DNA of 64,000 bases, taken from IMG/VR virus record IMGVR_UViG_3300033553_000165, positions 1 through 64,000 of that record; one strand, 5' to 3'. The first letter of the stretch is position 1, and each line of letters opens with the position of its first letter. The notes beneath the pieces were generated by a model, which was not told the origin of the DNA, ran no database searches, and was given only the letters and a program-made list of their open reading frames with translations. This document shows, piece by piece, positions 8,474 to 53,315 of the stretch. A program made the position numbers and the translations under genes. This DNA comes from a virus.

Positions 8474-10246
8474 TTATTTCTTATTACCGCCTTTTCTTCT
8501 ACTCTGTTCCAACTTATCAAGTGCCATAGATTGGGCTCTTGCTAAGTCTTTAGAAGTAAAAGTTTCTCCACCGCTTCTTTTAAGTTCTTTATTCGTTTCC
8601 GCTTCTATAAACTTAAAGTCTTCAACGTCTTTTACAATTGCGTGATATCTTTCTGCTACACTACCTCCAGTTGGTTCAGGTTTATCTCTATCTTCTTCAT
8701 CATCATCTCCTTCGTCTTCTCCATACTGTTCCTTAGAAGCTTTTCTAGAAGCTTCTTCGTCATCTTCTTCATCTTCTTCCCCGTCTTGCTCTTTCATAGC
8801 ATTCTGGTAAGCTTCCTCATCTTCTTCCTCGTCTTCTTCTTCGTCGTAGAAATTCCCACTTCCAGTTTCTCTCCTGTAGTCTTCCATATCTTCATCCTCT
8901 TCATCCTCTTCGTCGTCCCAATCCTGTCCTGGGTCTTCTTCTTCATCTCCGTCGTGATCCATTCCTGGTCTATCGCTTCCTGGTACCTCATCATCTTCAT
9001 CTTTATCTGTAGGCTCGTTTCCGTCTTCATCTCTCATCATCCAACCCTCTACTTCTCCTCCAGCTTCCTTGAATCTATTTATTAAATCTTGATCCCATTT
9101 CCCTTCTCCGTCATCGAAAGCATTAGCCATTGCGTGAATATCGTCCCACATAGCATCTAAATCACTATCGTCTCCATCGAAGCTTCCGTCGTTTTCATCT
9201 TCATCTTCGTCTCCACCTATAATTTCCTTATCATAGGTTTCGTCAGCGTCAGGGTCATCCTCAGAAGTTTCAAACCCATAACCTTCAGCTCTGAATTTTT
9301 CCATTGCTTGATCAACTAACGCCTCATCAATCGTTCCATCCTCACCATAAAGATCGTCAAATTCTAATCCAACTCCGCCTAACATTCTATCGATATCTTC
9401 AGAAAATTGCTCATCATCTGTACCGTTCATTAAGGCTTCCTTGACTCCTTCTAAACTATCTGCACCGCTTTCTCCCCCACCTTCCCCAGCGTCTGGATGT
9501 CCAGCGTGAGCTTTAAGGTCGTCAAGTGCCGCTTGAGCCGCATCTATCTTAGCGTGAGTTTCGGGACTCTTACCTGCGTTTTGAGCTTGGTGAATCTTAA
9601 CTGCCATAGAAGCAGTCATATTTGGGTCTTCCATTAGCATACCCATTATAGCTTCGTGATTTTCGGATACATATGCCCCTAAATCTACTTCAGCCTGACC
9701 TTCTTCGTCGGTCATCTCTCCACCTTCTCCGCCTTGACGTTGTTCTAATTCTTCTTGAGCGATTTCAACCTCAGCCATTCTTTCTCCAATATTACCGTTC
9801 TTTTCGATAAATTCTTGGAGTTGTTCGTCGGATAATTGAGAAGCGAAACTTCTTAGTTCTTCCTCTGAATGTTCACCTTGGTTCCGGTCTTGGTTGAATT
9901 GTTGATCTGCGCTTCCGTCATCTTCTGAATTGGAAGTCTTGGGCGAAGCTTGTTGTTTTTGAACACCTCCTTCTTTTACGTTAGATTTTGCTTCGCCCTC
10001 CTCTTCCTCACCGCCCATCGGTTTCTTTTCAGCTTTTGGATCTTCCCCATTTTTTACCCATCGAGTAGTTTGGTGACCCCTTTTATCTTGAACCTTTTTT
10101 TGAACCAGTTGGCTCTTTGGTTTATCTTTCTTATCCCCAAAATCCATATGCCCTTTAGTTAATTCCTCAAAGTCTTTGAAACCTTTGAGGATATTTAACT
10201 TTCGGGATGCTTGGTGTTCGTGGATGCTTTCAAATTTATCCGACAT
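8474..10246 (-). CDS. Highly acidic putative internal head/scaffold-like protein with RLNILKGF-type leader
   Basis: 590 aa, D/E-rich and low complexity; N-terminus shared with 14608..15027 and 15030..16148; adjacent to portal. Confidence 0.55.
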   Translation of the reverse strand: MSDKFESIHEHQASRKLNILKGFKDFEELTKGHMDFGDKKDKPKSQLVQKKVQDKRGHQTTRWVKNGEDPKAEKKPMGGEEEEGEAKSNVKEGGVQKQQASPKTSNSEDDGSADQQFNQDRNQGEHSEEELRSFASQLSDEQLQEFIEKNGNIGERMAEVEIAQEELEQRQGGEGGEMTDEEGQAEVDLGAYVSENHEAIMGMLMEDPNMTASMAVKIHQAQNAGKSPETHAKIDAAQAALDDLKAHAGHPDAGEGGGESGADSLEGVKEALMNGTDDEQFSEDIDRMLGGVGLEFDDLYGEDGTIDEALVDQAMEKFRAEGYGFETSEDDPDADETYDKEIIGGDEDEDENDGSFDGDDSDLDAMWDDIHAMANAFDDGEGKWDQDLINRFKEAGGEVEGWMMRDEDGNEPTDKDEDDEVPGSDRPGMDHDGDEEEDPGQDWDDEEDEEDEDMEDYRRETGSGNFYDEEEDEEEDEEAYQNAMKEQDGEEDEEDDEEASRKASKEQYGEDEGDDDEEDRDKPEPTGGSVAERYHAIVKDVEDFKFIEAETNKELKRSGGETFTSKDLARAQSMALDKLEQSRRKGGNKK

Positions 10247-10894: not shown

Positions 10895-11899
10895 TTACAT
10901 TTTTTGTATTTCATCCGCTTTACTTTGAGGAACGAATTGGCTTCTCTGCTTCCCCTTACCGATTGTCATCTTCCAATACTTCTGAAATTCACATAACCAC
11001 ATTTCTACTTGATGTAAGGTAATTTTCCCGTCCTTTTTTACGGAATAGCTTTTAGTCTCCTTATCCCAATTTAAATATTTGAAATCACCGAACTGACCTA
11101 ACTGTTCTTGAGCTAAATCCCTCAACCAGTAAATGCCCACTGTCTGATCTTTACCGTTCTTCAAGTTAGGAAATATTAATCTTATACCTACAGACGCTCC
11201 TGGTCCTACGTTTGTAAAGTCATCCTGGTCAAAACGCATAAGATTCACTTCAGAATATTTCGGAGCATAAGTAAAATCTTGGTAAAATTCGTGAGCTATG
11301 AAATCAGCTACAGCCGGAAGCGTCTTGAGGAAAGTTATTATGACTTCCGGACTTTTCGCCTTAGCTAAAACTAATTGAAGCTTTCTTACTTTTTTATGTA
11401 AAGTTGGGATAACCTTATTAGCATAGCACCAATCTCTTTTCCTTCCTGGGCAAGCCATAGAATTTATTAAGTAGGCATTTGTGAAAGGATTCTCACCCGT
11501 TTCCCTATAATCTGCCATCTGTTGTTCTAATGTCGCTTGATCATATTCCTCATAACTCGGAACTCCTCCTATGAATTCAAAAAATTCCGGCTTGTTGAAA
11601 TATCTGAATAGCATAATTCTCCAAAGTAAATCTACATTACCATTTTTCTTTTCGTGCTTAAGAAATACGTTTTTGATTTGCCATTGACTGTGACGGTCTA
11701 ACTCACGGTAAACATTTGTGAATTTATTGTTACTAAAAAATGGGTCTTCTGTCCAAGGTCTTTCTTGACCTAATATAAACCGCTTATGCCAGATTTCTTG
11801 ACGCTCGAACATAGTTTTAAAGAATAATTCTAGATTCGGCTCATATACGTCTAATTCAGCGTCCGGAAGATCGCCTGTCCAGCTTGAGACATAACTCAT
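10895..11899 (-). CDS. aGPT-PPlase clade 1 (alpha-glutamyl/putrescinyl-thymine pyrophosphorylase-like) DNA hypermodification enzyme
   Basis: ERQEIW..R..G..RPWTEDP....KFTNVYRELDR, NVGPGASVGI, VEMWLCEFQKY family motifs. Confidence 0.88.
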   Translation of the reverse strand: MSYVSSWTGDLPDAELDVYEPNLELFFKTMFERQEIWHKRFILGQERPWTEDPFFSNNKFTNVYRELDRHSQWQIKNVFLKHEKKNGNVDLLWRIMLFRYFNKPEFFEFIGGVPSYEEYDQATLEQQMADYRETGENPFTNAYLINSMACPGRKRDWCYANKVIPTLHKKVRKLQLVLAKAKSPEVIITFLKTLPAVADFIAHEFYQDFTYAPKYSEVNLMRFDQDDFTNVGPGASVGIRLIFPNLKNGKDQTVGIYWLRDLAQEQLGQFGDFKYLNWDKETKSYSVKKDGKITLHQVEMWLCEFQKYWKMTIGKGKQRSQFVPQSKADEIQKM

Positions 11900-12720
11900 A
11901 ATTTTATACTTTGAAATTCTTTGGTTCTTGCGATATCGGGTTCAAACGTCCAAGTCTTTTTAACAGGCTTCCATTTTAGATATGGATATTTCTCACTCAT
12001 TATTTCTTTAGTCTTAAGAACGGCTGCTCCTCTGTCGAAATCTTGTACTCCTCCCGCATTTTTGCCTACTGGTCTGTAATCAAGTCCAAGTTGTTCGTGG
12101 CGAACCGTATTGAATCCTGAATGCACTAAATGGAAGAAGGTATCAAAATCCTCAAAACCACTATTATCTAGATGTTCTGGATATGGAAATAAATGTTCGG
12201 TCTCTACAATGTAGGAACTTTGGAACCTTTTATTTAGCCTATCCCAAATTATGCTTAAATCTTCTTGACGCAATTCTTGACCGTAACAAAATGAGACACC
12301 TTTAATTTGGCTCCCCAATTCTTCTAGAATAATAAGGCTATCATCAATTGCTTTATCCAAAAAGGTTTGTGTCCGGAATTTTCTATCAACTTTATGTATT
12401 TCTTTCAACTCCGTAATATTCCGCACCCTTATATTATTGATATCATCATCCATCTTGAAAACATACTTATAATTGTTTTCTCTGGCGTATTCTTGAATAC
12501 ATAATTTCGCATAACATAGTCCTTCGTCGTTAGCGTCAATTATAACCAGCTCGTCATCCGTGAAGGATTTTGAGTAACTTTCATATTGTTGCGGCTCAAC
12601 GAATATTTTGTAAGGGAATTTTGAATGTTTGATGAATGAGTGAGTGTCCTTCTTTAAACCTTCCGCTCGACTTCGGCTTGGTATTGCGATTAAAATTTGA
12701 CCATTAGTAGAGTCTTCCAT
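11896..12720 (-). CDS. GT-A glycosyltransferase, TET-associated/GREB1-like DNA-glycosylating type
   Basis: IAIPSRSRA, IFVEPQQYESY, FKMDDDI (DxD), FEDFD, KNAGG; overlaps the aGPT-PPlase1 gene by 4 nt. Confidence 0.8.
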   Translation of the reverse strand: MEDSTNGQILIAIPSRSRAEGLKKDTHSFIKHSKFPYKIFVEPQQYESYSKSFTDDELVIIDANDEGLCYAKLCIQEYARENNYKYVFKMDDDINNIRVRNITELKEIHKVDRKFRTQTFLDKAIDDSLIILEELGSQIKGVSFCYGQELRQEDLSIIWDRLNKRFQSSYIVETEHLFPYPEHLDNSGFEDFDTFFHLVHSGFNTVRHEQLGLDYRPVGKNAGGVQDFDRGAAVLKTKEIMSEKYPYLKWKPVKKTWTFEPDIARTKEFQSIKL

Positions 12721-12961
12721 TTTTAATTAGGCTTTTGAGTATATTAATATTTGAAACTTCTAAAACTATTTTCCCCGTCTTTTTGGTAATTGTTTCTTTA
12801 AATATGATATTCACGTACATCTCTCTGGAGGAAGAATACGACATATAAAATTCGTTTTCCCCTTCCAGAAGTGACTTAGCTAAACTTTTAAATTTTGGGT
12901 GGATTTTTCTTTGACGACTCGCTTCTTCCAATTGAAGCTTTATTTTCTTTCTCCAACTCAT
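12704..12961 (-). CDS. Hypothetical protein
   Basis: ORF coupled to the glycosyltransferase gene. Confidence 0.6.
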   Translation of the reverse strand: MSWRKKIKLQLEEASRQRKIHPKFKSLAKSLLEGENEFYMSYSSSREMYVNIIFKETITKKTGKIVLEVSNINILKSLIKNGRLY

Positions 12962-13221
12962 AAACTATCTAGATGTATTTCGGCCAAACTTTCAACTGCT
13001 TCAAATACCTTCGGCTTCAGATTTTTTATTTCTTCCATTATATCTTTTTCCCTTCTCATCATTATCCAAGCGTCAGACGCTCTAAGATTTTTCCAACAAT
13101 CATCAAATGATGTAAATGATAAAATGAGGTCGGTTGTCTTCTCCTTATGTTTTATATAGATATCGTTGGCTCCTAATTTTCTTAGAAATAAAAAACGGTC
13201 TATAATAGCTTGATTTCTCAT
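12958..13221 (-). CDS. Hypothetical protein
   Basis: First ORF after the TTACACGGTT motif. Confidence 0.6.
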   Translation of the reverse strand: MRNQAIIDRFLFLRKLGANDIYIKHKEKTTDLILSFTSFDDCWKNLRASDAWIMMRREKDIMEEIKNLKPKVFEAVESLAEIHLDSL

Positions 13222-13230
13222 ACTACTATA

Positions 13231-13240
13231 AACCGTGTAA
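13231..13240 (-). promoter_or_regulatory. Putative phage middle-promoter motif TTACACGGTT
   Basis: Identical intergenic copies at 26313 and 53306; variants at 18088, 23904 and 60834. Confidence 0.6.
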
Positions 13241-13260
13241 GGTTTTAAGGTGAAAGGTCT

Positions 13261-13650
13261 TTAGAGACCGCTCTTCTTATTGATCTCGGTAAGTATTGCT
13301 GTTAATATTAGGAAGATTGAATGGTTGGTTAAATCAGGGAACCTTCCGCTTAATTTGTCGTATATTTCTGACGAAGCTTCTAATATGGCTTCCTCTCCGA
13401 AAAGGTCTTGAGGACCATAGGTATTCCAGAAGAATGATTTTACAAGAGATTCGTTATCCAAAATGAACCCGAACCCGTTGTTGATGGTTTCTATGGAAAA
13501 GTTCTTTTCTCCCAATCTGTCCATTTCTAAAATTACTCTATCGCCTTCCCATCTTTTAAAGATAGCTAACCTTCCGTCTAATTTAGACTGAAGCATTTTA
13601 GCAGTTAGAAGATTAACGTTGATTGCGGATAAGTTGTTTTGAGTTGCCAT
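13261..13650 (-). CDS. Hypothetical early protein
   Basis: Directly downstream of early promoter copy 1. Confidence 0.7.
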   Translation of the reverse strand: MATQNNLSAINVNLLTAKMLQSKLDGRLAIFKRWEGDRVILEMDRLGEKNFSIETINNGFGFILDNESLVKSFFWNTYGPQDLFGEEAILEASSEIYDKLSGRFPDLTNHSIFLILTAILTEINKKSGL

Positions 13651-13748: not shown

Positions 13749-14582
13749 TTAAAATTTTAATGCAATCATCTGCTTAGCTGTTAATTCGTATGTACTTTTG
13801 TCGTCTAAATTATTTTCGTACATTTCAATAGCTTTTACTTCGGCTGCATTTTCTAACCATTGATATACTAAATTATTATAATTACTATTTAACTTTGCGT
13901 CGGCTGGACTAGCACACGCAGACAAGGCTTCTCCAGACGCAGAGTCAATTGAAGGAGAACCGTTATCACAATACGTCTGACTCCAGTCAAAAACCTTATA
14001 CGGGCATTTAACCAGTTCTCTATAACCGTATGTATTTGGACTCTGAGTAGGAAGATTCGGCAAAGCTTCCATAGCTACCATAATCTGGGAACAAAGTTCC
14101 TCACATTTATCTTCAATAGCATCCTTAACATTTATGAGTCTACTTTTTATATCACCTCCAGTTTTCTTGAATACAATATTTCCGGAATACTCAAAAGCTT
14201 CCATAACCCCCTTTTCAAGCTCATTTTCATTTCCCTTCTTTAAGGTATCTTCAACGGCTTTCTGGAGAACGTACACCGTCCGGATATTTCCTTCGTGAGA
14301 AACTTTAATAGGCTTTAAGCTACCAAGATCAGCCGAAGCTTTTGATAAGAACCCATTAACTTCTTCGGTGTCATTGAAACCGCCTTTTACAATTTCCCCT
14401 CCAACCGACTCATAAGTTTTACGGATAAACTCATCAATATTTGATTTTTCAAATGTTAAGAATTTGGTTTCCGGATATCTTGTAGCTAATTGTTCCTCTG
14501 TAATTGATTTTTCAACGTTGGTGAAGATGCCCATATTTAGACGTCCTTCAAATTTATCTGCTGATAAGAATAAGTTTTCCAT
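13749..14582 (-). CDS. Putative head-associated protein with repeated xxK(A/S/G) motifs
   Basis: N-terminal RLNMGIF..VEKS; FEKS, IVKG, LSKA, LQKA, LKKG, LEKG. Confidence 0.55.
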   Translation of the reverse strand: MENLFLSADKFEGRLNMGIFTNVEKSITEEQLATRYPETKFLTFEKSNIDEFIRKTYESVGGEIVKGGFNDTEEVNGFLSKASADLGSLKPIKVSHEGNIRTVYVLQKAVEDTLKKGNENELEKGVMEAFEYSGNIVFKKTGGDIKSRLINVKDAIEDKCEELCSQIMVAMEALPNLPTQSPNTYGYRELVKCPYKVFDWSQTYCDNGSPSIDSASGEALSACASPADAKLNSNYNNLVYQWLENAAEVKAIEMYENNLDDKSTYELTAKQMIALKF

Positions 14583-14607: not shown

Positions 14608-15027
14608 TTATTTTTTGGGTCTGGGAGGATACGCTTCCTTCACCTCGTGTATTTTTACTTGACCAGTAACAACTAATTTCCCGTCCTTCCGACTTATCAT
14701 ATGCCTAGGAACGTGATAAACATTTACTTTGTGATCTCCTGGAAAAGTGTTAACCTGAACATAATCCTTATGAAGGTCAACGATATTAGATTTCTCTCCA
14801 ACGATTCCCCCACCCGTTACCTCATTACCGTAATCTAATCTTGGTGCTTTGTTTTCTCCCTTTTGGCCATATTTTAATCCTACTCTTCCTAATCTACGGT
14901 TTTCTGGGTTATCCCCATAAACTCCACTCTTCGCCTTTTCCAAAGCGTCATCTGATTCCTTAAATCCCTTTAGGATATTTAAACGCCTTTTAGCGTTATC
15001 CTCATTTATTTCGTCTTGCCAATTCAT
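14608..15027 (-). CDS. Putative internal head protein
   Basis: MNWQDEI..RRLNILKGF..LEKA leader. Confidence 0.6.
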   Translation of the reverse strand: MNWQDEINEDNAKRRLNILKGFKESDDALEKAKSGVYGDNPENRRLGRVGLKYGQKGENKAPRLDYGNEVTGGGIVGEKSNIVDLHKDYVQVNTFPGDHKVNVYHVPRHMISRKDGKLVVTGQVKIHEVKEAYPPRPKK

Positions 15028-15029
15028 AA

Positions 15030-16148
15030 CTACTTTTTTGTTTGTCTTACTTTATAACTGGCTTCCCCATAAAATTCGCTATCCTGATAACCACGGTCGT
15101 CGTAATTGTCGTCGTCTTGTTTTATAGTCTTAGCTGTGATCTCTTTACCGCTATATCGGTTGATAGGCTTTTTATCTACATATTCCAATCCAGCTGGTAA
15201 ACTTGGTAAGGAAGCACTCATAGCCTTCTTATCAGCGTCCCGAGGATATCCCCTTTTCCCATTTACCGCAACTTGTAGAAGATAGCTTCCATCTTTTTGC
15301 TTATCAGTTAATCGGAAGTCAACATCGAGACCTCCGGAACGATAGGATTTTTTCTCCAACTCATCATTCACCTTATCAACATCAATCTGGATAGGCTTCT
15401 TCATTGGCTTGATTGGTGGAGCTTTCTTTTCAGATAAATCCTCAACCTTATCCCAAAGGTCTTTACTTCCGTTCCAACGGTAATTTTCTTTTTTGAATCC
15501 CTCCAATTTTTTAGCTTGTTGAAATTCTGAAGATGATAAGCTTGATTGTTTTAATAATGGGCTTGTCTTAGCTGCCCCTCCCCTACTTGCTAATGCAGAT
15601 TTTGCCGAAGCAACTACTTTGTCTGGGGATTTCTTACCTCCGTCACGCTGACCGAGAACGTATTTTTTACCAGTGATCTCAACGTATTTCTTTTGAAGTT
15701 TGGATATCTTATTATCAGTGTGTCCCGAAACGTGACCAACTGTTTCAATTTGAGATTTCCTGTCCCATAGAACGGAACTTAGCTCATCTTCTAATTTTGT
15801 CTGCTCGGAACGAACCTTTTTAACTGCGTTCGCAATAACTTCTTTTTGGTTTTGGTTGGCGATGTCTTTCCTGTTTGCTTGAGCTCTTGGGGAATTACTT
15901 GCCCCACCCGTTCCGGAATCAGTTTTACCGCTTGCCGAAGCACCCCCAGTTTTATCGGAAGCTTTTGCCCCTCTCCAGTCAAACTTTCCTGGTGCGTATT
16001 CCTTCCACACCCATTTACCGTTCGGGTGCATTTCTCCTACTTTTCTATTCTTTGCTTTCATAAGTTCGTCTTCTACTTCGACAAAACCTTTGAGAATATT
16101 TAGCCTTTGATTAGCTTGGTGATTGAGAATATCGTCGTGCCAATTCAT
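15030..16148 (-). CDS. Putative basic internal head protein
   Basis: MNWHDDI..QRLNILKGF..LMKA leader; K/R-rich. Confidence 0.6.
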   Translation of the reverse strand: MNWHDDILNHQANQRLNILKGFVEVEDELMKAKNRKVGEMHPNGKWVWKEYAPGKFDWRGAKASDKTGGASASGKTDSGTGGASNSPRAQANRKDIANQNQKEVIANAVKKVRSEQTKLEDELSSVLWDRKSQIETVGHVSGHTDNKISKLQKKYVEITGKKYVLGQRDGGKKSPDKVVASAKSALASRGGAAKTSPLLKQSSLSSSEFQQAKKLEGFKKENYRWNGSKDLWDKVEDLSEKKAPPIKPMKKPIQIDVDKVNDELEKKSYRSGGLDVDFRLTDKQKDGSYLLQVAVNGKRGYPRDADKKAMSASLPSLPAGLEYVDKKPINRYSGKEITAKTIKQDDDNYDDRGYQDSEFYGEASYKVRQTKK

Positions 16149-21041: not shown

Positions 21042-21671
21042 TTAAAATTGGAACGACAACCTCAGCTTTTTATTTTCCGCCTTTTTTACAGCAACCGCTG
21101 AATTGCCTGATCTCAATTTGTTTATATAAACCTTGGCCATTTCTACAGTCGCCAAAGTATCATTCATCGCACGGTGAGCACCGCTTAATTCTACGTCTAT
21201 TTCTTTACAACAATTCCCCAAACTTAACGACGTAGCATCTTTATTGAACATCTTACTCAATAACATTGTACACATTGGGGTTGGGCTAAAAAAGTCAAAT
21301 AGTTCTTTATTACAACGCTCAAATAAGCTTCCGGTCATCCTTATATCAAATTGTACATTATGACCCACTAAGATGGGACGGTTTTCCGGACGACTATTCG
21401 GTGAGTTCTTCTTGGCAAAATCAATAATAAGCTTCACCGCTTCCTTTTTATCGTATCCGTTATTAATATCAACCATCTTCAATCCCGTGACGTCTAATGC
21501 CCCCTTAGTGATTTCTAGATCATCATACGGCTTAATATACATTTCGAACCTATTAAGTTCCTTCAACGAACTTCCGTCAAGTGCTACTAAGGCTATTTGT
21601 GTAATGGGGTTTTCCTTTTCAGAAAGACCCCCAGTTTCACAATCGAATACAATATAATTCGCTTTTTTCAT
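21042..21671 (-). CDS. dnaQ: DEDDh 3'-5' exonuclease (DNA Pol III epsilon-like)
   Basis: VFDCETGG, VGHNVQFDI, AHRAMND. Confidence 0.9.
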   Translation of the reverse strand: MKKANYIVFDCETGGLSEKENPITQIALVALDGSSLKELNRFEMYIKPYDDLEITKGALDVTGLKMVDINNGYDKKEAVKLIIDFAKKNSPNSRPENRPILVGHNVQFDIRMTGSLFERCNKELFDFFSPTPMCTMLLSKMFNKDATSLSLGNCCKEIDVELSGAHRAMNDTLATVEMAKVYINKLRSGNSAVAVKKAENKKLRLSFQF

Positions 21672-21903: not shown

Positions 21904-22338
21904 CTACTTATTTCCCGTGCTACCAAAACCGCCTTCACCTCTTTGGGTTGGATCAAGTTTACTGACTTCTACCCAATCGGCTCTTTCGTGCTTAGCTATT
22001 ACCAATTGGGCGATACGGTCTCCTGCTGAAATTACAACTCTTTCGTTTGAAAGGTTTACCAAGATAACTCCAATTTCTCCCCGATAGTCAGCGTCAATAG
22101 TTCCTGGGGAATTTAATACGGTAATTCCTTGTTTGGCTGCTAAACCGCTTCTGGGTCTAACTTGAGCCTCAACTCCCGTTGGTAACTGGATGAAAAGTCC
22201 TGTTGGGATAACCCTTCTTTCTAATGGTCCTAATTCTACTAAGTCTTTTAAAACCGCTCTCAGATCCATTCCGGCAGATTGCCAAGTTTCATACTTTGGT
22301 AAATCGTGACCCGATTTGTTGATAATTTTAATATCCAT
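21904..22338 (-). CDS. dut: dUTPase (trimeric)
   Basis: [40 protein letters not shown]. Confidence 0.97.
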
Positions 22339-23185: not shown

Positions 23186-23401
23186 TTAGGAAATCTGTTT
23201 GAAATTTAGCTTTCTCTCAGATAGGAAGGCTTCTATTTTCTCTCCCTCTTCCTTATCCTTAACGCTGAAGTAAATTAGTTCGGTGCCCCCTTTGCGCTTC
23301 CCTACGGAGATCTGGAGTGTGTTGAAGTGCTTAAGCATTTGCTTGTGCGCTTTCTTAACGTTGTACGAAGTTTCTAATTGGTAACGGAAATTTTTTGACA
23401 T
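23186..23401 (-). CDS. Hypothetical protein
   Basis: ORF track; AATCGTAAA leader. Confidence 0.6.
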   Translation of the reverse strand: MSKNFRYQLETSYNVKKAHKQMLKHFNTLQISVGKRKGGTELIYFSVKDKEEGEKIEAFLSERKLNFKQIS

Positions 23402-23876
23402 TGCTTGGTAGTTTTACGATTGTAACATTAAAATCTTTTAGCTCTTTTCTAATTAACTTTGAAACCTCTTTCCAATCTCCTCCGGCAATTCCGCACCCTA
23501 TTAATGGTAACCCTATATTAATCGCCTCAATATCATCTTCACTCAGCGTTTCTTTCATAACGGTTGCGAACTCACGAAAAGAACTTTCTAAGGCTTTAAT
23601 CCTTAAATCTGGTCCTGGCATAAATTGGGTATAAAAATTGACTACCATAACGCCATATTTTATATTTTCTCCAACTGTGAAGCTTCCTAATCTTTTTTCT
23701 GGTGTAGCTTTCCAATTCTGATCTGCTTTATAAGCTTCCGGAAAAGCTTCTTTGATTGGTTTAGCAATTCCTGCCTGCATAGTAGCGAAGCAATTACATC
23801 CGTGGCCAATGATATCAAACTTACCAGCCTTCGCCAGTACGATCAAATCGCCTTCAATTTCTTTATAAGTTCCCAT
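23355..23876 (-). CDS. Macrodomain ADP-ribose-binding/hydrolase protein
   Basis: GDL, IGHGCNC..MQAGIA, NFYTQ, LPLIGCGIAGGDW. Confidence 0.9.
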   Translation of the reverse strand: MGTYKEIEGDLIVLAKAGKFDIIGHGCNCFATMQAGIAKPIKEAFPEAYKADQNWKATPEKRLGSFTVGENIKYGVMVVNFYTQFMPGPDLRIKALESSFREFATVMKETLSEDDIEAINIGLPLIGCGIAGGDWKEVSKLIRKELKDFNVTIVKLPSNVKKFPLPIRNFVQR

Positions 23877-26312: not shown

Positions 26313-26322
26313 AACCGTGTAA
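26313..26322 (-). promoter_or_regulatory. Putative middle-promoter motif TTACACGGTT
   Basis: Sits between a terminator and the candidate sRNA. Confidence 0.6.
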
Positions 26323-28343: not shown

Positions 28344-28844
28344 TTATAACTTTGGTAAACCCCAGTCTGTTGCTAAAATATCAGTCTGGGAAGCTAACCA
28401 AGGTACGAATTTATTATCCGCAGTCTTCATTCCTATCCAAGGTAAAAAACCGTCCGTATCCTTATTTATCTGTTCGTAGACTGTCCCCAATCCCCATTTT
28501 CCGCTTTCTATCATTAACAGATACATACCCTTTCCATTCCAGCCTTTACGACTCACCATTTTTCCGGCTTTCAGTGCTTCTACAGCTTGACCAAAAGTTC
28601 CCCTTTCAAGATGTAAACCCCCAAAAGGTCCTGGAGACGCTGTTTCCCCCCAACTCTGGACGAAGGCTTCCTCATTTATCCCTTCCTTACTATAATCCTC
28701 AATCTCCTTAGCGATTTTAAGGATCTCTTCCGTATCAGCGGCAGTTTCTCCAGCCTTAGCTTCTAACCACCCTTGAGCGTGAGCCTTTCTGGCTATCCGG
28801 AACGCTTCTGAGTCAATCGGCTTAGTTTCTTTTTGTTCGTCCAT
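28344..28844 (-). CDS. tad2: Thoeris anti-defence 2 (DUF2829) family protein with N-terminal extension
   Basis: FGQAVEALKAGKMVSRKGWNGKGMYL..PWLASQTDILATDW. Confidence 0.85.
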   Translation of the reverse strand: MDEQKETKPIDSEAFRIARKAHAQGWLEAKAGETAADTEEILKIAKEIEDYSKEGINEEAFVQSWGETASPGPFGGLHLERGTFGQAVEALKAGKMVSRKGWNGKGMYLLMIESGKWGLGTVYEQINKDTDGFLPWIGMKTADNKFVPWLASQTDILATDWGLPKL

Positions 28845-47563: not shown

Positions 47564-47829
47564 CCTTCTATTACTTCAATTTTATTAGCCTTTAGTTGTT
47601 CATTAACCTCAATCATCCTCTCCAGATAATCCTTAGCTTTTATAAGGTCTATTTGATTATTCCCCTTACTACTTTCAGGTCGGATGAAACGGTCTAAATA
47701 TCGTTCTACGTGTCCCGCACAATAAGCGTCCCCGTGGGTTTTGCTTCTCCTATACATACGGGATATCATATCGTGTTCCTTTTCACCGTATTTAGAACGG
47801 TTGGAAGCTTCCAGTTCGTCTCTAGTCAT
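47560..47829 (-). CDS. DUF3310 family protein (T7 gp1.7-like)
   Basis: YCAGHVERYLDR..KG...DLIKAKDYLERMIE. Confidence 0.7.
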   Translation of the reverse strand: MTRDELEASNRSKYGEKEHDMISRMYRRSKTHGDAYCAGHVERYLDRFIRPESSKGNNQIDLIKAKDYLERMIEVNEQLKANKIEVIEG

Positions 47830-48451
47830 TGTATTTCCAATTTATAGTTTTTAAATCAAATAAAATATTCAGGTCTTTAGTCTCAAGAATAAATGAATTT
47901 TCTTGGTAATAATCTATACATTCATCAACGGCCAAGTTTAGGTTTTTGATACAATATTTATACTTAACCTTTAAGATCAAGTTCCCTAACTCCATCTCCT
48001 TTTTAATGTAGAACGCCATACTCATCCAGTCTGCGACTTTCACTAATAATTTTACATATTTATGCTTCATAGCGAAATTATCCCGAAATAAGGAATTTGA
48101 TTTCGTTTCAGATCCAAATAAGTTTTCTATGGAAACATCTACGAAACTATCAAGTTCTTGGCGAATTTTGATACCGTTGTGTTTGTTGTACTTAACGTTG
48201 TGGTTAATGTCACCTGTGAACATTTCGTCAAAGTCGTGAAAGGCAGCATAAGTCATAACCGCTAATTTCTGTTCACACGCTTCCTTTTCGAATATCTCCT
48301 CGGCAAGTATCCTTGAGAACCAAGTTACCAAGAAGCTGTGGTGAGCAACGGTTTCATCCTTTATTCGGTGCATACCGTTCCAACGGATCATATTATTTAG
48401 TTGATCAAAATTTTCATCAAATAGGATATTTTCAAATAAATTAACTTTCAT
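47822..48451 (-). CDS. HD-domain (YfbR-like) deoxynucleotide phosphohydrolase
   Basis: RW..ETVAHHSF, HDFDEMFTGDI, VKVAD. Confidence 0.88.
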   Translation of the reverse strand: MKVNLFENILFDENFDQLNNMIRWNGMHRIKDETVAHHSFLVTWFSRILAEEIFEKEACEQKLAVMTYAAFHDFDEMFTGDINHNVKYNKHNGIKIRQELDSFVDVSIENLFGSETKSNSLFRDNFAMKHKYVKLLVKVADWMSMAFYIKKEMELGNLILKVKYKYCIKNLNLAVDECIDYYQENSFILETKDLNILFDLKTINWKYND

Positions 48452-48463
48452 AAGTTGTGGGGA

Positions 48464-51400
48464 TTATAATTCTATTACCTTAGTTCTAGAAGTAACTTTG
48501 AACATATTTTTACCTCTAAAATCGTCAAAGAAGGCTCCACCGTGAACGGCAAACATTCCTTTAGTTATATTGAGTTCCTTAAATTGTTTTCCATATTTCT
48601 TGGCTTCCTCTTTCCAGAGAACGGTTAATATGATCGCATTGTTAGATTCTATAGAGACTTTATGGTAAATGTCCCCATTTCTATCTACAGCGTCAAATAT
48701 AGCTAATACCCTTCCAGCTATCGTACAAGGCTCTCCATCATCATACCTTCCTCTCTTTCCTTTTTTAGTATCATTCCAACTTAAAAATGATTGTCCGTTC
48801 CAGTAACTACTTATAACACGCTTCACTTTGGTTTTCTTCATAAGAAGTTCCTTATAATCAATCTCACCAAACCCCGTGATGTCTCTTTGCTTATATGTCC
48901 AGAACCAGTTCTTATCATTATTTTCGTCAGTCTCTATTTCTTCTGGAATATCGGCTTTAATCAACTCATAATAAGTTTTTAAAACCTTATACCGCTTTCG
49001 GGATTGATTTCCTACTACGTCTCCCTCTGAGTCCTCAATAGCGTCAAACGCTCCTGCGACTATCAAGTTAGTCACAACCCTTTTATTTACCTTGCTCTTG
49101 GGAACCCTATTTAAAAATTCTTCCAATGAAAAGAACATCCCGCCATCTTCTCTAGCTCTAAGGATTTCCGCTACAGCTACCTCCCCTGCGTGCTTAATTT
49201 TGGTCAACGACCAGTATATGGTATTTTCCTCAGGATCAGAAGTAAAGTGCCTGTCAGACTTATTTATATCTGGGGGCATAACTTTTATCTTTTTCTTAGA
49301 ATTTAAGTTAATTGCCGTGATCTCTGAAAGTCTATTCGGAACCTCATTTTTCTCGTCCGAAAAGTTTAAAGAACCCGTCCAAAACTCCAACGGATATTTA
49401 ACTTTAAGATATTGACACCAGTACCCCATCAGGGTGTAGGCTGCGGAGTGAGAACGGTTAAATCCATAAGCAGAGAAAGCATAAAGTTTGTCCCATACTT
49501 TAATAGCTATTTCTTCCCCATCACCTTCGGCGAATAGGACTGAGTATCCTTGGATGAATTTTTCCTTGAATTTAGCTAATGATTTATCATCAAACTTTTT
49601 CATATAAGTTCTGACCTGATCGGCTTCGGCTAATGTTAATCCACCGACCACCATCGCTTGCATTACTTGTTCTTGAAATACATATAGACCGTGAGTATTT
49701 TTGGTTATCACGTCCATATATGGGTCAAACTTCGCTTTCTTCTCCTTATGCTTAATTTTAGCAAAATCATTATGCGCATCACTATCCATCGGTCCTGGTC
49801 TAAATAATGCGTTCATAGAAATTAGGTCTTCTATATTATCAGGTCTTACCTTTTTAGAATAGCTTTTAAGTCCGGAAGTACCAAATTGAAATACGTCTTC
49901 ATTCCAACCCTTCTGGAAGAACTTAAAAACGCTCCTACGATTTACCGGAATTTTGTTTAAATTGATCTTTTTACCTTGGTTAACTTTTATCAGCCTCAAA
50001 ACTTCTTTAAATTTATCCAGCTGTGCTATCCCCAGAATATCTTCCTTTAAGAACCCAGCACGATCTACATACTTCCCTTCCCATTCTGCTACTAAGTTCC
50101 CATCAATTTTCTTAACAGGCAACCAATCAAAAACCGTCATAGGGTTTCCGTCTTTATCTTCCTTTGGTACAATTAAAACCGCTGACGGATGTATAGAACC
50201 TGCCCTCGGTTGCCCCAAGACTCCTTTTATTACCTCACAGACTTCCGCATTCTTTTGTACGAAGCTTTTCAACTTCGGCTTAATCATAGCGTTATCAAAT
50301 ATCTCTTGCCAGTTTGCCTTTTGAGAATCCGGAATTTCTTTAGTTGCGAAATTTATATCCTGAAACTGTAAGCCCATTACCCTTCCAAAATCCTTAAGAG
50401 CCGACTTGACTTTCATCCTACTATAAGTTCCCACGGAACATACGCTTGAAACTCCGTATTTCTGTTCTATGTACCTTTTTACTTCCTGCCGCTTACTACC
50501 TTCAAAATCCACATCAATATCCGGAAGAGCATCAGCCGATTTGGCTCTTTCCCCAGATACTCTAGTTTTATTCATAAATCGCTCAAAAAGTAAATCATAC
50601 TCAATCGGGTCAATTTCCGTAACTCCTAATAAATAGGCTACCAAAGAACCCCCAGCGGAACCCCTTCCTGGTCCTACTAAGATATCATTTTTCTTAGACC
50701 AATCCACTATGTCCCAAAGTATCATAAAATAGTCAACAAACCCCGCACCTACAATAACGTCGTTTTCTTCCTGAATCCGCTCAACGTATTCATTTATAGT
50801 TTTTTCGTCTTCAAACTTATTAAGAACTTTTTCGGTGAACCCTTCCTCAATTTTTTGGTAATATAAACCTATCGTGTCTTCGTGTTCAAATTTAGGTAAT
50901 TTGTGATTTCCTACGTCTATTAGAAAATCGCAAGCTTCAGCAACCTCAACCGTATTGGTTAGGGATTCTATGAATATATCCAACTTATCTTCGTCTCCAA
51001 ATAAGGGGAGATTTTCATTAATGATCGTTTGTGAATCCTTGTAATATTGCTGTGATGAAACTGGTTGAGATTTTCGGCTGATATCGTTCAATAGTTTTTT
51101 AACACCGCTATTTACTTTCTCACTATAATAACAGTCTCCTATGTAAATAGGCTTTAAAACCTTATAGAATTTCTTCATATAAGTTTTTATGTTATTCAGA
51201 TTTTCCATATCAATGACTTCGTCTTCAAGTTCATTTAGGTCTATCTGGTAATAAAGGTTTTCTTTGCCGTAAATCTCTTGATAAATTTCTATCCTCTCAA
51301 GAAATAATTTACTCTTATTGATAATTCTATTGAAGTAGCTATCCCTCGGAATTACACAAATGATACCTTCGTTGTATTGGAGTAGAATTTCCTCTGGAAT

Positions 51401-52091: not shown

Positions 52092-53279
52092 TTATAACTT
52101 AGCTGATTGTATTAGTTTTTCCGCTATCACTTCGCCTACTTCGTTATCTAACTTTGAATAGAAAAAATTCTGCGCTAATGCTAAGATATCAAGTGGGGGA
52201 TATAATTCGGCAATATCAATAATCTGAAGAAGTTTCTCAAACTTTGCCTTTTCGCTTCTATCAGAAATAAATTTATAATCAATATACAAAAACAGTAATT
52301 CGTAAGTCAGGTACAAGAAGTTTGAAAACGCCTTTACGGATTCTTCTTGTTTTTCCGTTAACTCCGTTTTATTTCTACAAGCATCAATTACTAAGCTGAA
52401 CATTTTATCAATTTGCCTTAGCCTTAAATTAACATCTATAGAGTCAAAATTGAAATCCATCTTAAACGGAATAGCGTTATCATAAAGGTCTTCAAATTTA
52501 CCGTTCGTGATTTGAATATTATCATACATATTGAAGGTCGTTGGGTTGGAAGTGTAAACGTGTAAACTTTGAGAATTATGCGTTTGCGTTCCTAACTCTA
52601 CCCCTAATATTCTTGCCATAACTTCCGTCACAAAACTAAACTGGAAGACGTTAGTGGGTAAACCCCAATGTAAATCGTTGCTTCTGTTAGCTATCGTCGT
52701 GATCATTTTTCCGTCCCTTATTTTAAGCATAACAAAATCGTTACACGGGATATCTACAGAGTCCGTACCTAAATCAAGTTCGGCATTCCAAATCTGTAGG
52801 GCAACCCTTCTGGTTTCCGGATTTTCATCTAACATTTGTAAAGCTTTCTCAACTTGATCAAACCCATCAATGATCTGTTGTGATGCGTGACCGTTGTTTT
52901 CCGGAGAAGTGGAATTTATTTCATCATAACTACTTACCCCGTGTTTCCGCATTCTGAAACCGTATGGTGCGTGAAATACCTTCCCATCGTCTGAGAATGT
53001 TTTCATTTTCGTATTAAAGATTTCCAGAAATTCTACATCCTTTTCCCCTTTGAAAATCCAAAGTGCTTCAGCTAATAAAAAAAATATGTTTATATCCCTT
53101 TCATTATTCCCAACGCATCTAAAATATGGATTGGTTATCTTCAGCTTGAAATCTAAAATCTCTCTCGTGTCCCCATATCGGCTGGGAATGAAGTCCCCGT
53201 TCTCAATAATATATTTATTGACGAAGGGATAATCATATGAAAACCTTTCGGTCTTTAAAGATTCATTTACTATATTCAT
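52092..53279 (-). CDS. Thymidylate synthase homolog, probable dUMP hydroxymethylase
   Basis: FSDDG..YG, TRR, DIPCN, NRSNDLHWG..TN (Asn at the dUMP-specificity position), SLHVY; phage modifying-type rather than canonical ThyA. Confidence 0.8.
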   Translation of the reverse strand: MNIVNESLKTERFSYDYPFVNKYIIENGDFIPSRYGDTREILDFKLKITNPYFRCVGNNERDINIFFLLAEALWIFKGEKDVEFLEIFNTKMKTFSDDGKVFHAPYGFRMRKHGVSSYDEINSTSPENNGHASQQIIDGFDQVEKALQMLDENPETRRVALQIWNAELDLGTDSVDIPCNDFVMLKIRDGKMITTIANRSNDLHWGLPTNVFQFSFVTEVMARILGVELGTQTHNSQSLHVYTSNPTTFNMYDNIQITNGKFEDLYDNAIPFKMDFNFDSIDVNLRLRQIDKMFSLVIDACRNKTELTEKQEESVKAFSNFLYLTYELLFLYIDYKFISDRSEKAKFEKLLQIIDIAELYPPLDILALAQNFFYSKLDNEVGEVIAEKLIQSAKL

Positions 53280-53305: not shown

Positions 53306-53315
53306 AACCGTGTAA
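53306..53315 (-). promoter_or_regulatory. Putative middle-promoter motif TTACACGGTT
   Basis: Immediately after a terminator, upstream of the TS-dnaE operon. Confidence 0.6.

Follow-up and report, generated by a model that had tools for sequence, protein, structure and literature searches.

A predicted DNA glycosyltransferase gene coupled to a clade 1 aGPT-Pplase (PF18723) gene in a phage that very probably replaces thymine with 5-hydroxymethyluracil

Introduction

To our knowledge, every thymidine hypermodification pathway worked out so far proceeds via a DNA kinase together with an aGPT-Pplase of clade 2 (transferase), and all characterised thymidine-hypermodifying phages carry a clade 1 protein. 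In M6/YuA, PaMx11, ViI, PhiW-14, SP10, and SH-Ab 15599, 5-hydroxymethyluracil (hmU) is supplied before replication by a dUMP hydroxymethylase (PMC5889632, PMC8989533, PMC13458397). The known thymine hypermodifications are chemically varied, several of them (putT, dapT) adding a charged amine, and only clade 2 proteins have demonstrated activity, the clade 1 protein M6 gp55 being dispensable in vitro (PMC8989533). Sugars are placed on DNA by the TAGT glycosyltransferases associated with 5mYOX (TET/JBP) enzymes (PMC8256090; bioRxiv 10.1101/2023.12.21.572611; PMC13229309); TAGT enzymes of demonstrated activity modify 5hmC, not hmU (PMC8256090; bioRxiv 10.1101/2023.12.21.572611), and Tet_JBP genes that mostly occur without a C5-methyltransferase (C5-MTase) have been read as belonging to T-dioxygenase (hmU) pathways (PMC13229309). 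None of these three TAGT papers mentions a coupling of such a glycosyltransferase to PF18723, the Pfam family of the clade 1 proteins, and no paper reporting a measurement of glycosyl-hmU in a phage was found in the literature searched.

The locus described here belongs to an uncultured phage with a 96.9-kb genome and lies within the 64-kb stretch that was analysed, hereafter the window. With the hmU-derived systems it shares a predicted pre-replicative hmU supply and a PF18723 protein, homologous to M6 gp55, YuA gp14, ViI gp160, and the C-terminal domain of SP10 gp186, which has the HhH fold and the Glu/Cys motif of the clade 2 transferases of those phages. In contrast to them, it has no PF18748, PF18724, PLP, or radical-SAM tailoring genes, and a glycosyltransferase gene (GT) takes the place that the kinase gene holds ahead of PF18723 in YuA. 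With the 5mYOX-associated TAGTs the GT shares the Pfam family, the GT-A fold, and the motif, and its nearest outgroup relatives adjoin Tet_JBP genes; however, a dioxygenase and a C5-methylase are lacking, and the modified base would be hmU derived from a thymidylate synthase (TS) homolog before replication rather than hmC. As in base J, which in kinetoplastids arises through the thymidine hydroxylases JBP1/2 followed by JGT, the predicted product is an O-glycosylated hmU and the enzyme is, going by the literature, a JGT-like GT-A protein. Unlike in base J, hmU would come from a nucleotide-level hydroxymethylase instead of oxidation of T in DNA, the replacement would probably be genome-wide instead of confined to rare sites, and an additional HhH-fold enzyme is encoded. 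The division of labour recalls hmC glucosylation in T-even phages (dCMP hydroxymethylase gp42, alpha/beta-GT), where a TS homolog changes the nucleotide pool and glycosyltransferases decorate the polymer, except that the base here would be of the uracil type (Asn210) and not of the cytosine type (Asp), and that no dCTPase was seen in this phage.

Results

Organization of the operon

All genes of the operon lie on the minus strand, two small ORFs being followed by the GT gene and the PF18723 gene.

13225..13270, minus strand: terminator-like hairpin, then TTACACGGTT (13231-13240) with a TATAGT box, the first ORF following after 9 nt
12958..13221, minus strand: small ORF, 87 aa, opening the operon, without Pfam or PHROG family
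12704..12961, minus strand: small ORF, 85 aa, which the nearest relatives also have upstream of PF18723
11896..12720, minus strand: GT-A glycosyltransferase of the TAGT/JGT-like DNA-glycosyltransferase family (PF20691), 274 aa
10895..11899, minus strand: stand-alone PF18723 protein (Pfam; aGPT-Pplase clade 1 / HMUDK_hel), 334 aa

The stop codon of GT and the start codon of the PF18723 gene share the sequence ATGA, and the two genes are translationally coupled. An earlier note on this DNA had described the arrangement as a DxD GT-A glycosyltransferase of the TET-associated/GREB1-like type overlapping an aGPT-PPlase clade 1 gene by 4 nt behind two small ORFs, with TTACACGGTT ahead of both the operon and a dUMP-type TS homolog 40 kb away. 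The overlap and both copies of the element were found as described, and the family assignments of the three proteins held as well, as detailed below. Homologs of the 85-aa ORF (36-49% identity) occupy the same position in four relatives (L033, L034, L037, and L041). The idea that the small ORFs are relics of a kinase or of an amino-acid:DNA transferase (ADDT, clade 2) was rejected, as six-frame HMM searches gave no similarity. A DNA-level search of cultured phages with the operon region returned no match, and the sequencing runs listed with matching DNA are two, from one cold-spring study, one of the two being probably the origin of this DNA, with no RNA run listed.

The glycosyltransferase belongs to the TAGT family

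GT matches the Pfam family PF20691 (TAGT) over residues 11-223 of 274 with 54.7 bits (cut-off 27.5; E 1.7e-14). In the alignment, R18, the DDD motif at 91-93, and E190-D191 are invariant and F192 is nearly so; this R...DDD...EDF pattern corresponds to the DNA GT-A/JGT motif of bioRxiv 10.1101/2023.12.21.572611. The AlphaFold2 model (pLDDT 91.5) matches GT-A folds in the PDB, while its best matches in BFVD are TAGT-domain phage proteins with TM scores of 0.6-0.72, well above generic GT-A proteins. Sequence searches of PDB chains with GT and with the PF18723 protein gave no match for either. The closest homologs of GT (P0002) are 78% identical, and its nearest outgroup, at 30-34% identity, has Tet_JBP as a neighbour in 23 out of 29 records, of which just one contains a C5-MTase gene, the pattern that PMC13229309 assigns to hmU pathways. 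GT thus has the profile, fold, and motif of the TAGTs, in a genome that lacks the TET/JBP gene with which they are associated.

The PF18723 protein retains a catalytic motif

The downstream protein matches the PF18723 HMM over residues 23-315 with 180.9 bits (cut-off 25; E 4e-53), and its AlphaFold2 model (pLDDT 95.6) shows an HhH-glycosylase-like fold. Across 98 diverse members of the family, C303 and K307 never vary, while E299 and E304 hardly do. Foldseek found no match to the model in the PDB at E<=0.001; after re-scoring with VIA-align, first place went to 8z2n, the clade 2 5-PmdU glycinyltransferase gp46 of PaMx11 (233 residues, rmsd 3.9), with a Z score of 11.2, although a Z of about 11 is, for a helical fold, too low to be trusted by itself. 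The glycosylases Ogg and AlkA followed with Z scores of 8-10. By hhalign, E299...C303-E304 aligns with the metal Glu and catalytic Cys of the clade 2 protein YuA gp10 (PMC13458397), which is a correspondence of motifs rather than a proof of homology, since the alignment to this single clade 2 sequence has an overall E value of 0.22 and covers the catalytic motif only.

Proteins of this family are otherwise found in phages with hmU-derived hypermodification, and, as there, the genome encodes a putative dUMP hydroxymethylase (below); a 5-hmdU kinase, fused or separate, is missing. Clade 1 proteins were dispensable in vitro for the known pathways (PMC8989533), which counts against the catalytic role proposed for the PF18723 protein below. 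The label of small terminase (phrog_800, and the RefSeq labels of SP10 gp186 and YuA gp13) was rejected, as the labelled records are a kinase or a kinase fusion; in this genome the large terminase gene has another gene, of 200 aa and distinct from PF18723, immediately upstream. The predicted complex of the PF18723 protein with GT scored 0.00 in a run made without controls, which speaks neither for nor against an interaction.

Predicted supply of hmU and absence of the usual partner genes

The window contains three genes that bear on the nucleotide pool.

52092..53279, minus strand: thymidylate-synthase homolog with the signature of a dUMP hydroxymethylase (PF00303, E 2e-22)
21904..22338, minus strand: dUTPase, nucleotide-pool support (PF00692, E 3e-31)
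47822..48451, minus strand: YfbR-like HD 5'-deoxynucleotidase (PF12917, E 4e-18)

A dUMP hydroxymethylase is recognised by a TS fold with the catalytic Cys and by three further residues, namely Asn where E. coli has N177, an acidic side chain in place of L143, and Asp retained at D169 (PMC13326640). The alignments place C179 at the catalytic Cys, N210 at the dUMP-specific N177, and D176 at L143, where an acidic residue admits water; D202 retains the Asp of D169 and hence argues against a 5-hydroxy synthase. The dUMP hydroxymethylase gp188 of SP10 has identical residues at these positions. The best cultured matches of the protein, with 37-40% identity and E values of about 1e-36, are SPO1 gp29 and its counterparts in SP8 and SP82G and the dUMP hydroxymethylase of SP-10. 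No other TS homolog is encoded in the whole genome, and 26 of 26 relatives have this gene too. On this evidence, which is that of sequence comparison, the TS homolog is predicted to be the source of hmdUMP, and the phage very probably swaps thymine for hmU. The HD 5'-deoxynucleotidase is a candidate for the removal of competing dTMP. A putative DUF3310 (T7 gp1.7-like kinase) at 47620-47790 reached 15 bits only, under the cut-off, and was discarded.

The window had previously been described as free of TET/JBP, C5 methylase, and hmdU kinase genes, and HMM searches extend this statement to the entire 96.9-kb record: no Tet_JBP was found at E<=1, no C5-MTase, and no PLP or radical-SAM tailoring gene. 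The 5-hmdU DNA kinase PF18748 and the clade 2 transferase PF18724 were both absent at E<=10, and six-frame searches of the whole genome with kinase and ADDT HMMs built from the lineage itself were equally negative. The clade 2 transferase by which canonical thymidine hypermodification is recognised is therefore missing here, and it was found in none of 30 relatives, 29 of which also lack the 5-hmdU kinase. In the absence of dioxygenase, C5-methylase, kinase, and clade 2 transferase genes, hmU is the sole visible acceptor for GT, in agreement with the earlier proposal that the substrate of GT comes from the TS homolog.

A promoter-like element is common to the operon and the TS homolog

The element TTACACGGTT occurs four times in the window, against 0.1 copies expected, and none of 100 shuffles reached four; a fifth copy is intragenic, at genome position 75988. 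Three intergenic copies on the minus strand each follow a terminator-like hairpin, namely the one at 13231 ahead of the 87-aa ORF and two others.

26313-26322, minus strand: TTACACGGTT in the same hairpin arrangement, ahead of a small unit
53306..53315, minus strand: TTACACGGTT after a terminator hairpin, upstream of the TS homolog, arranged as at the operon

Hairpin, TTACACGGTT, and TATAGT box together are probably a phage-specific promoter. As the terminator-promoter element is common to this operon and that of the TS homolog and DNA polymerase, the operon is likely to be expressed alongside the DNA-metabolism genes despite its location between terminase and portal.

Distribution of the gene pair among relatives

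PF18723 is a core gene of a lineage of phages of about 100 kb, in which it always lies between terminase and portal, and a search of viral contigs with a broad PF18723 alignment mostly returned this same lineage. GT, in contrast, is a rare add-on. Its orthologs occur elsewhere in the orders kinase-ADDT-GT-PF18723-portal (L205) and GT-ADDT-kinase-FkbM MT-PF18723 (L203 and L204) and, in L207, near an ADDT and a radical-SAM gene; the clade 2 transferase is present in all four of these records. Of the four other contexts found for the GT clade, three have a clade 2 transferase in the same locus, and three loci have a kinase too. A different TAGT, 21% identical to GT, lies directly downstream of PF18723 in L068, L071, and L078. 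The linkage of a GT with PF18723 therefore recurs, as the earlier note had suggested might be checked, whereas its account of the pair is only partly sustained, one member being core and the other an occasional addition.

The note had further taken the aGPT-PPlase as an actor in hypermodification and had proposed that either two different adducts are installed or one adduct containing a sugar is built in sequence. The activity shown is that of clade 2 (PMC8989533), so the installation of two adducts would rest on an enzyme without a known reaction, and the genome lacks the kinase and clade 2 transferase that the known chemistry requires. A second glycosyltransferase system, which that account had left out, is considered below.

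Discussion

A DNA-type glycosyltransferase together with a clade 1 protein, in a predicted hmU phage devoid of the usual kinase, points to a sugar-bearing thymine analogue. According to the reading that we prefer, to which we give about an even chance, GT O-glycosylates hmU in DNA and the PF18723 protein carries out a separate catalytic step that does not depend on a kinase. A dUMP hydroxymethylase of the SPO1 gp29 type would make hmdUMP, and the DNA would replicate with hmU in place of T. We infer this replacement as well as the donor, an NDP-sugar, and the acceptor, the oxygen on the hydroxymethyl group of hmU in double-stranded DNA, to which the TAGT GT-A enzyme would move the sugar; family, motif, and the lack of another acceptor suggest that the product would be a base-J-like O-glycosyl-hmU. 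The PF18723 protein, the lineage-core clade 1 paralog of the amino-acid:DNA transferases, would act in a phage with neither kinase nor clade 2 transferase. Its HhH fold and the retained metal-Glu/catalytic-Cys motif suggest that it probably attacks C6 of a flipped-out 5-substituted uracil, and our best guess is that it would process hmU or O-substituted hmU at some sites, in parallel with or after glycosylation. As the GT clade elsewhere sits with the clade 2 transferase and kinase, the native acceptor of GT could also be an amino-acid adduct, which this phage would be unable to make.

The acceptor of GT might itself already carry a sugar. The best PHROG match of GT is phrog_842, annotated as beta-glucosyl-HMC-alpha-glucosyltransferase, an enzyme of T2/T6-like phages, and a like-named protein is among its structural matches, though such names are annotations and not tests. 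The genome also encodes a candidate for the first transfer.

89996-91411 of the genome: GT-B glycosyltransferase, among head genes, with a homolog in 20 of 30 relatives

TAGTs substitute for this gene: nine complete relatives without GT-B carry two TAGTs, one of them exactly in the GT-B slot. GT-B combined with a single TAGT is found, among the genomes examined, only in this phage and the L068 group (two of three records, fragmentary). The gene beside GT-B is PIG-L-like, an assignment (PF02585) that falls below the Pfam cut-off, and in L207 the GT ortholog is two genes away from a PIG-L-like gene. GT-B, with or without this neighbour, may thus be the primary hmU transferase, and GT may extend the product to a disaccharide or serve other sequence contexts; the position of GT-B among head genes, however, means that its target could be something other than DNA. 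On balance we consider this division of roles unlikely.

Alternatively, the sugar could replace phosphate as the activating group, GT glycosylating hmU and the PF18723 protein attacking C6 and expelling the sugar, whereupon the exocyclic methylene would be resolved by a nucleophile or hydride to give another adduct or thymine at chosen sites. GT lies directly upstream of, and is translationally coupled to, PF18723, a position held in YuA by the kinase gene (gp13, which overlaps gp14 by 1 nt). SP10 gp186 is a fusion of the kinase with PF18723, and the clade 2 catalytic motif is retained here. Every lineage genome examined has PF18723 and at least one glycosyltransferase (GT-B, or TAGTs in the GT-B slot), nearly always without a kinase, but this co-occurrence was inherited within one lineage and so is not independent evidence. 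Moreover, GT and kinase are not simple alternatives, as they occur together in the L203, L204, and L205 operons, and O-glycosides leave poorly, no such reaction being known. We regard this pathway as very unlikely.

Still less probable is an incidental adjacency, in which GT would have a target other than DNA (a protein of the virion or a polymer of the host surface) and would merely have come to lie in one of the variable slots among the head genes. The pair does lie between terminase and portal amid genes for probable packaged proteins, unrelated genes also occupy the slot beside PF18723, for example one for a glucosaminidase in L033 and L034, and the structural matches of GT include generic GT-A enzymes from cell-wall pathways. 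Against this stand a TAGT score of twice the cut-off, the lead of TAGT proteins over generic GT-A proteins in BFVD, the independent arrival of two unrelated TAGT clades next to PF18723, the embedding of GT orthologs in kinase/ADDT/radical-SAM operons, and the promoter element common to this operon and that of the TS homolog. That the DNA holds ordinary T, with a genuine thymidylate synthase (the Pfam match is Thymidylat_synt, and many homologs are so named in database records) and with GT and PF18723 as relics or acting elsewhere, is hardly credible in view of the Asp at the L143 equivalent, the closeness to biochemically known dUMP hydroxymethylases, a best PDB match to the hydroxymethylase MilA (E 7e-20, against 3e-14 for a true TS), and the occurrence of PF18723 otherwise in phages with hypermodifications derived from hmU.

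Besides the preferred reading, glycosylation of hmU by GT with a separate step by the PF18723 protein, a bolder generalization deserves mention, although we hold it to be quite unlikely: clade 1 PF18723 proteins might be kinase-independent C5-methylene enzymes that take O-glycosylated rather than O-phosphorylated hmU as their activated substrate. If so, the priming step for hypermodifying thymine, or for turning hmU back into T, at chosen sites would in this lineage fall to a glycosyltransferase and not a kinase, the clade 1 paralog of all thymidine-hypermodifying phages would gain a function, and the two-gene operon would be a minimal test system. Since the clade 1 protein occurs here without the kinase and the clade 2 enzyme and is coupled only to GT, its function is directly testable with two genes and the hmU-DNA of SP8 or SPO1. 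With a sugar placed on hmU by a phage, base J would have its counterpart among bacterial viruses, and sugar-modified DNA bears on restriction evasion and on the recovery of such phages by sequencing. The lineage itself is widespread, public metagenomes containing more than 600 protein clusters that belong to it.

Operon organization and a repeated element

The window covers the first 64 kb of its source record, a 96,896-bp IMG/VR virus genome rated 98% complete. Among cultured phages, those of Bacteroides thetaiotaomicron have the nearest large terminases (35% identity), and sequencing runs with this DNA came only from one cold-spring metagenome study. The minus strand carries all genes. The earlier note had described a glycosyltransferase (GT) paired with an aGPT-Pplase clade 1 protein (PF18723) behind two small open reading frames (ORFs); Pfam matches to both families and an ATGA overlap joining the two genes confirmed this arrangement.

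12958-13221, minus strand, 87-aa ORF, in the same direction as the next three ORFs
12704-12961, minus strand, 85-aa ORF
11896-12720, minus strand, GT, 274 aa (Pfam TAGT, score twice the curated cut-off)
10895-11899, minus strand, PF18723 protein, 334 aa (Pfam PF18723, E 4e-53)

The window contains four copies of the promoter-like element TTACACGGTT, versus 0.1 expected. Each of the three intergenic minus-strand copies is preceded by a terminator-like hairpin, and these copies front the GT-PF18723 operon, a small unit at 26.3 kb, and the thymidylate synthase (TS) homolog; a motif common to the GT operon and the TS homolog, as noted before, is therefore present. Three flanking proteins (8474-10246, 14608-15027, and 15030-16148) have a common N-terminal RLNILKGF-type segment, which GT and the PF18723 protein lack. 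In the two nearest IMG/VR relatives (L033:5496-5987 and L034:5460-5987), a glucosaminidase-domain gene (PF01832) fills the GT slot and overlaps the PF18723 start, so the slot is a general insertion hot spot.

Assignment and proposed role of the glycosyltransferase

In an 11-member alignment, R18, D91-D92-D93, and E190-D191 of GT are invariant and F192 nearly so. The protein carries the motif R...DDD...ED(Y/F), reported from JGT and from phage GT-A enzymes that modify DNA (bioRxiv 10.1101/2023.12.21.572611). AF2 modelled it in a GT-A fold (pLDDT 91.5), and the first twenty matches among viral models were mostly TAGT-domain phage proteins (TM 0.6-0.72), clearly ahead of generic GT-A enzymes. GT is rare, with 12 clusters among 5.8 billion proteins. 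The nearest outgroup (30-34% identity) occurs in ~32-kb phages, in which a Tet_JBP gene adjoins in 23 of 29 records, and a C5-methylase is found in one of the 29 records and in none of four complete genomes; Tet_JBP without a C5-methylase is the pattern of predicted T-dioxygenase, i.e., 5-hydroxymethyluracil (hmU), pathways (PMC13229309). Going beyond the gene content, motifs, folds, and synteny that are established here, we propose that hmU would take the place of T in the phage DNA and that GT would O-glycosylate it there, a role in which we have moderate confidence.

Metavirome mining had already counted GT-A enzymes near TS homologs (bioRxiv 10.1101/2023.12.21.572611), and hmU-producing dioxygenases with glycosyltransferases have been described (PMC13229309); the literature searched held no report of measured glycosyl-hmU from a phage, nor one linking TAGT with PF18723. 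With only two genes, the pair would best serve as a minimal system for testing the putative clade-1 enzyme.

Exchange of GT-B and TAGT enzymes

Some glycosyltransferase was found in every genome examined of this lineage of ~100-kb phages with PF18723. Beyond the window, the present genome encodes a further one.

genome 89996-91411, minus strand, GT-B-like glycosyltransferase, 471 aa

A 220-aa gene is coupled to it (pair at genome 89996-92070, equal to L003:9996-12070), its PIG-L assignment being below the Pfam cut-off. GT-B homologs occur in 20 of 30 relatives; the nine complete relatives without GT-B have two TAGTs each, and in the complete relative G037 (L122:5699-6622) a TAGT sits exactly in the GT-B slot, beside the same adjoining gene. 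This in situ replacement suggests a common target for GT-B and TAGTs; it is also compatible with GT being a second-sugar enzyme, a role that we consider unlikely. Among the genomes examined, only this one and the L068 group were seen to combine GT-B with one TAGT, GT-B being seen in two of the three fragmentary records of that group.

The PF18723 protein as a candidate enzyme

The aGPT-Pplase clade 1 family, now named HMUDK_hel in Pfam, makes up the C-terminal half of SP10 gp186, a fusion with the kinase, and has 2,891 representatives overall; more than 600 close homolog clusters of the present protein lie on contigs of ~90-125 kb. In 80 IMG/VR relatives PF18723 occupies a single syntenic place, upstream of the portal and preceded by a 13749-14582 homolog and then a small gene, and the GT of this genome occurs in none of the 80. 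The PF18723 gene is not accessory.

Across 98 diverse members, R33, D68, F200, G234, C303, and K307 do not vary, and E299 and E304 hardly do. The structure model (pLDDT 95.6) has the 5-PmdU glycinyltransferase PaMx11 gp46 as its nearest neighbor (Z 11.2, 233 residues), followed by queuine-salvage DUF2419 and Ogg/AlkA glycosylases. The sole stretch aligning with the clade-2 protein YuA gp10 is IEHxLCEFxK, onto VETVLCKWK, and in clade 2 this very stretch contains the metal-binding Glu and the catalytic Cys (PMC13458397). Because of this alignment, PF18723 is read as a probable enzyme, a candidate for chemistry as in clade 2 rather than a passive DNA binder. The clade-1 protein gp55 of M6 was dispensable in a reconstituted pathway (PMC8989533). 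That the sugar added by GT would be a leaving group for PF18723 seems improbable.

In one complete relative the PF18723 frame appears in two pieces (L041:5974-6672 onward; 59% and 53% identity), which may reflect a frameshift or a disrupted gene. The RefSeq/PHROG-based label "terminase small subunit" on 5-hmdU kinase and PF18723 proteins (SP10 gp186, L113:1883-3796; YuA gp13, L121:5054-5617; phrog_800) seems to be an annotation error that has spread. The window encodes, at 28344-28844, a protein with a Tad2-like (anti-Thoeris) domain, and in Bacillus phage YungSlug a Tad2-like gene (L114:3568-4098) lies directly upstream of the PF18723 gene. A macro-domain protein (PF01661, E 5e-6) is encoded among the early genes at 23355-23876.

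Kinase, transferase, and GT orthologs in relatives

The genome yielded no 5-hmdU kinase (PF18748) or clade-2 transferase (ADDT, PF18724) at E<=10, and none in a six-frame search with the lineage's own kinase and transferase HMMs, which extends to the whole genome the lack of a P-loop hmdU kinase noted earlier for the window. PF18748 matched none of 26 complete relatives; among 30 relatives, the lineage kinase HMM matched one and the lineage ADDT HMM none. Scans with the family HMM can overlook the lineage kinase, whose PF18748 score is only 18 bits.

GT holds here the position that the kinase gene has in YuA, where it lies immediately before the clade-1 gene and overlaps it; in SP10 the kinase is fused to the clade-1 protein. 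The parallel in position is suggestive; GT and kinase are not simple substitutes, since both coexist on three metagenome contigs with GT orthologs. These orthologs are set in operons of classical appearance, and some members of the lineage thus have the complete gene set. One contig reads P-loop kinase-ADDT-GT-PF18723-portal (L205, 3459-6822), and two read GT-ADDT-P-loop kinase-FkbM methyltransferase-PF18723 (L203, 4977-9149, and L204); a fourth contig, L207, has ADDT-PIG-L-like-radical SAM-GT. Equal contig sizes point to shared contigs for the nearest homologs of GT and of PF18723, one such candidate being 2,420 bases long, with no room between the two genes. In the relatives L068, L071, and L078, a second TAGT, 21% identical to GT, lies directly downstream of PF18723. 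As both this TAGT and the GT orthologs accompany PF18723, the link is recurrent and arose at least twice; the adjacency seen in the window thus has counterparts in relatives. This GT clade belongs with thymidine-hypermodification genes, and action on a non-DNA target appears very improbable.

In 21 of 80 related loci, the gene that immediately follows PF18723 encodes an FkbM-type methyltransferase (PF05050, 338-363 aa; examples: L037:7027-8043, L047:2050-3078, L064:7105-8151, and L068:7932-8957); in L068, L071, and L078 the gene stands behind the second-type TAGT. These genes suggest O-methylation of the adduct or of its sugar.

Probable source of hmU

The genome has a single TS homolog, which is also present in all 26 complete relatives.

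52092-53279, minus strand, TS homolog, 395 aa

It has the catalytic C179 and the dUMP-selecting Asn (N210, E. coli N177). D176 stands at the position of E. coli L143, where true thymidylate synthases have a bulky hydrophobic residue that excludes water, and D202 retains the Asp of E. coli D169, replacement of which by Asn is a hallmark of 5-hydroxy-dCMP synthases (PMC13326640). The SP10 dUMP hydroxymethylase has the same four residues, and the best cultured-phage matches are SPO1 gp29 and the SP8, SP82G, CP-51, and SP-10 enzymes (37-40% identity). An ordinary TS, with plain T in the DNA, seems very improbable. Because no Tet_JBP, C5-methyltransferase, or second TS homolog was found in the whole genome, pre-replicative hmU is the only hydroxymethyl pyrimidine whose synthesis the gene content predicts. 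The earlier note had taken the TS homolog as the source of the GT substrate, no TET/JBP or C5 methylase being visible in the window; that absence holds genome-wide, and the TS homolog is dUMP-hydroxymethylase-like. The genome also encodes a dUTPase and a YfbR-like HD 5'-deoxynucleotidase.

The gene that directly follows the TS homolog in its operon encodes a DnaE-type DNA polymerase III alpha with a PHP domain (48464-52090, 1208 aa); a DEDDh exonuclease is encoded by a separate gene (21042-21671). At 47620-47790 there is a weak match (15 bits, below the cut-off) to DUF3310, a T7 gp1.7-like nucleotide kinase; if real, it would make this gene a candidate hmdUMP kinase.
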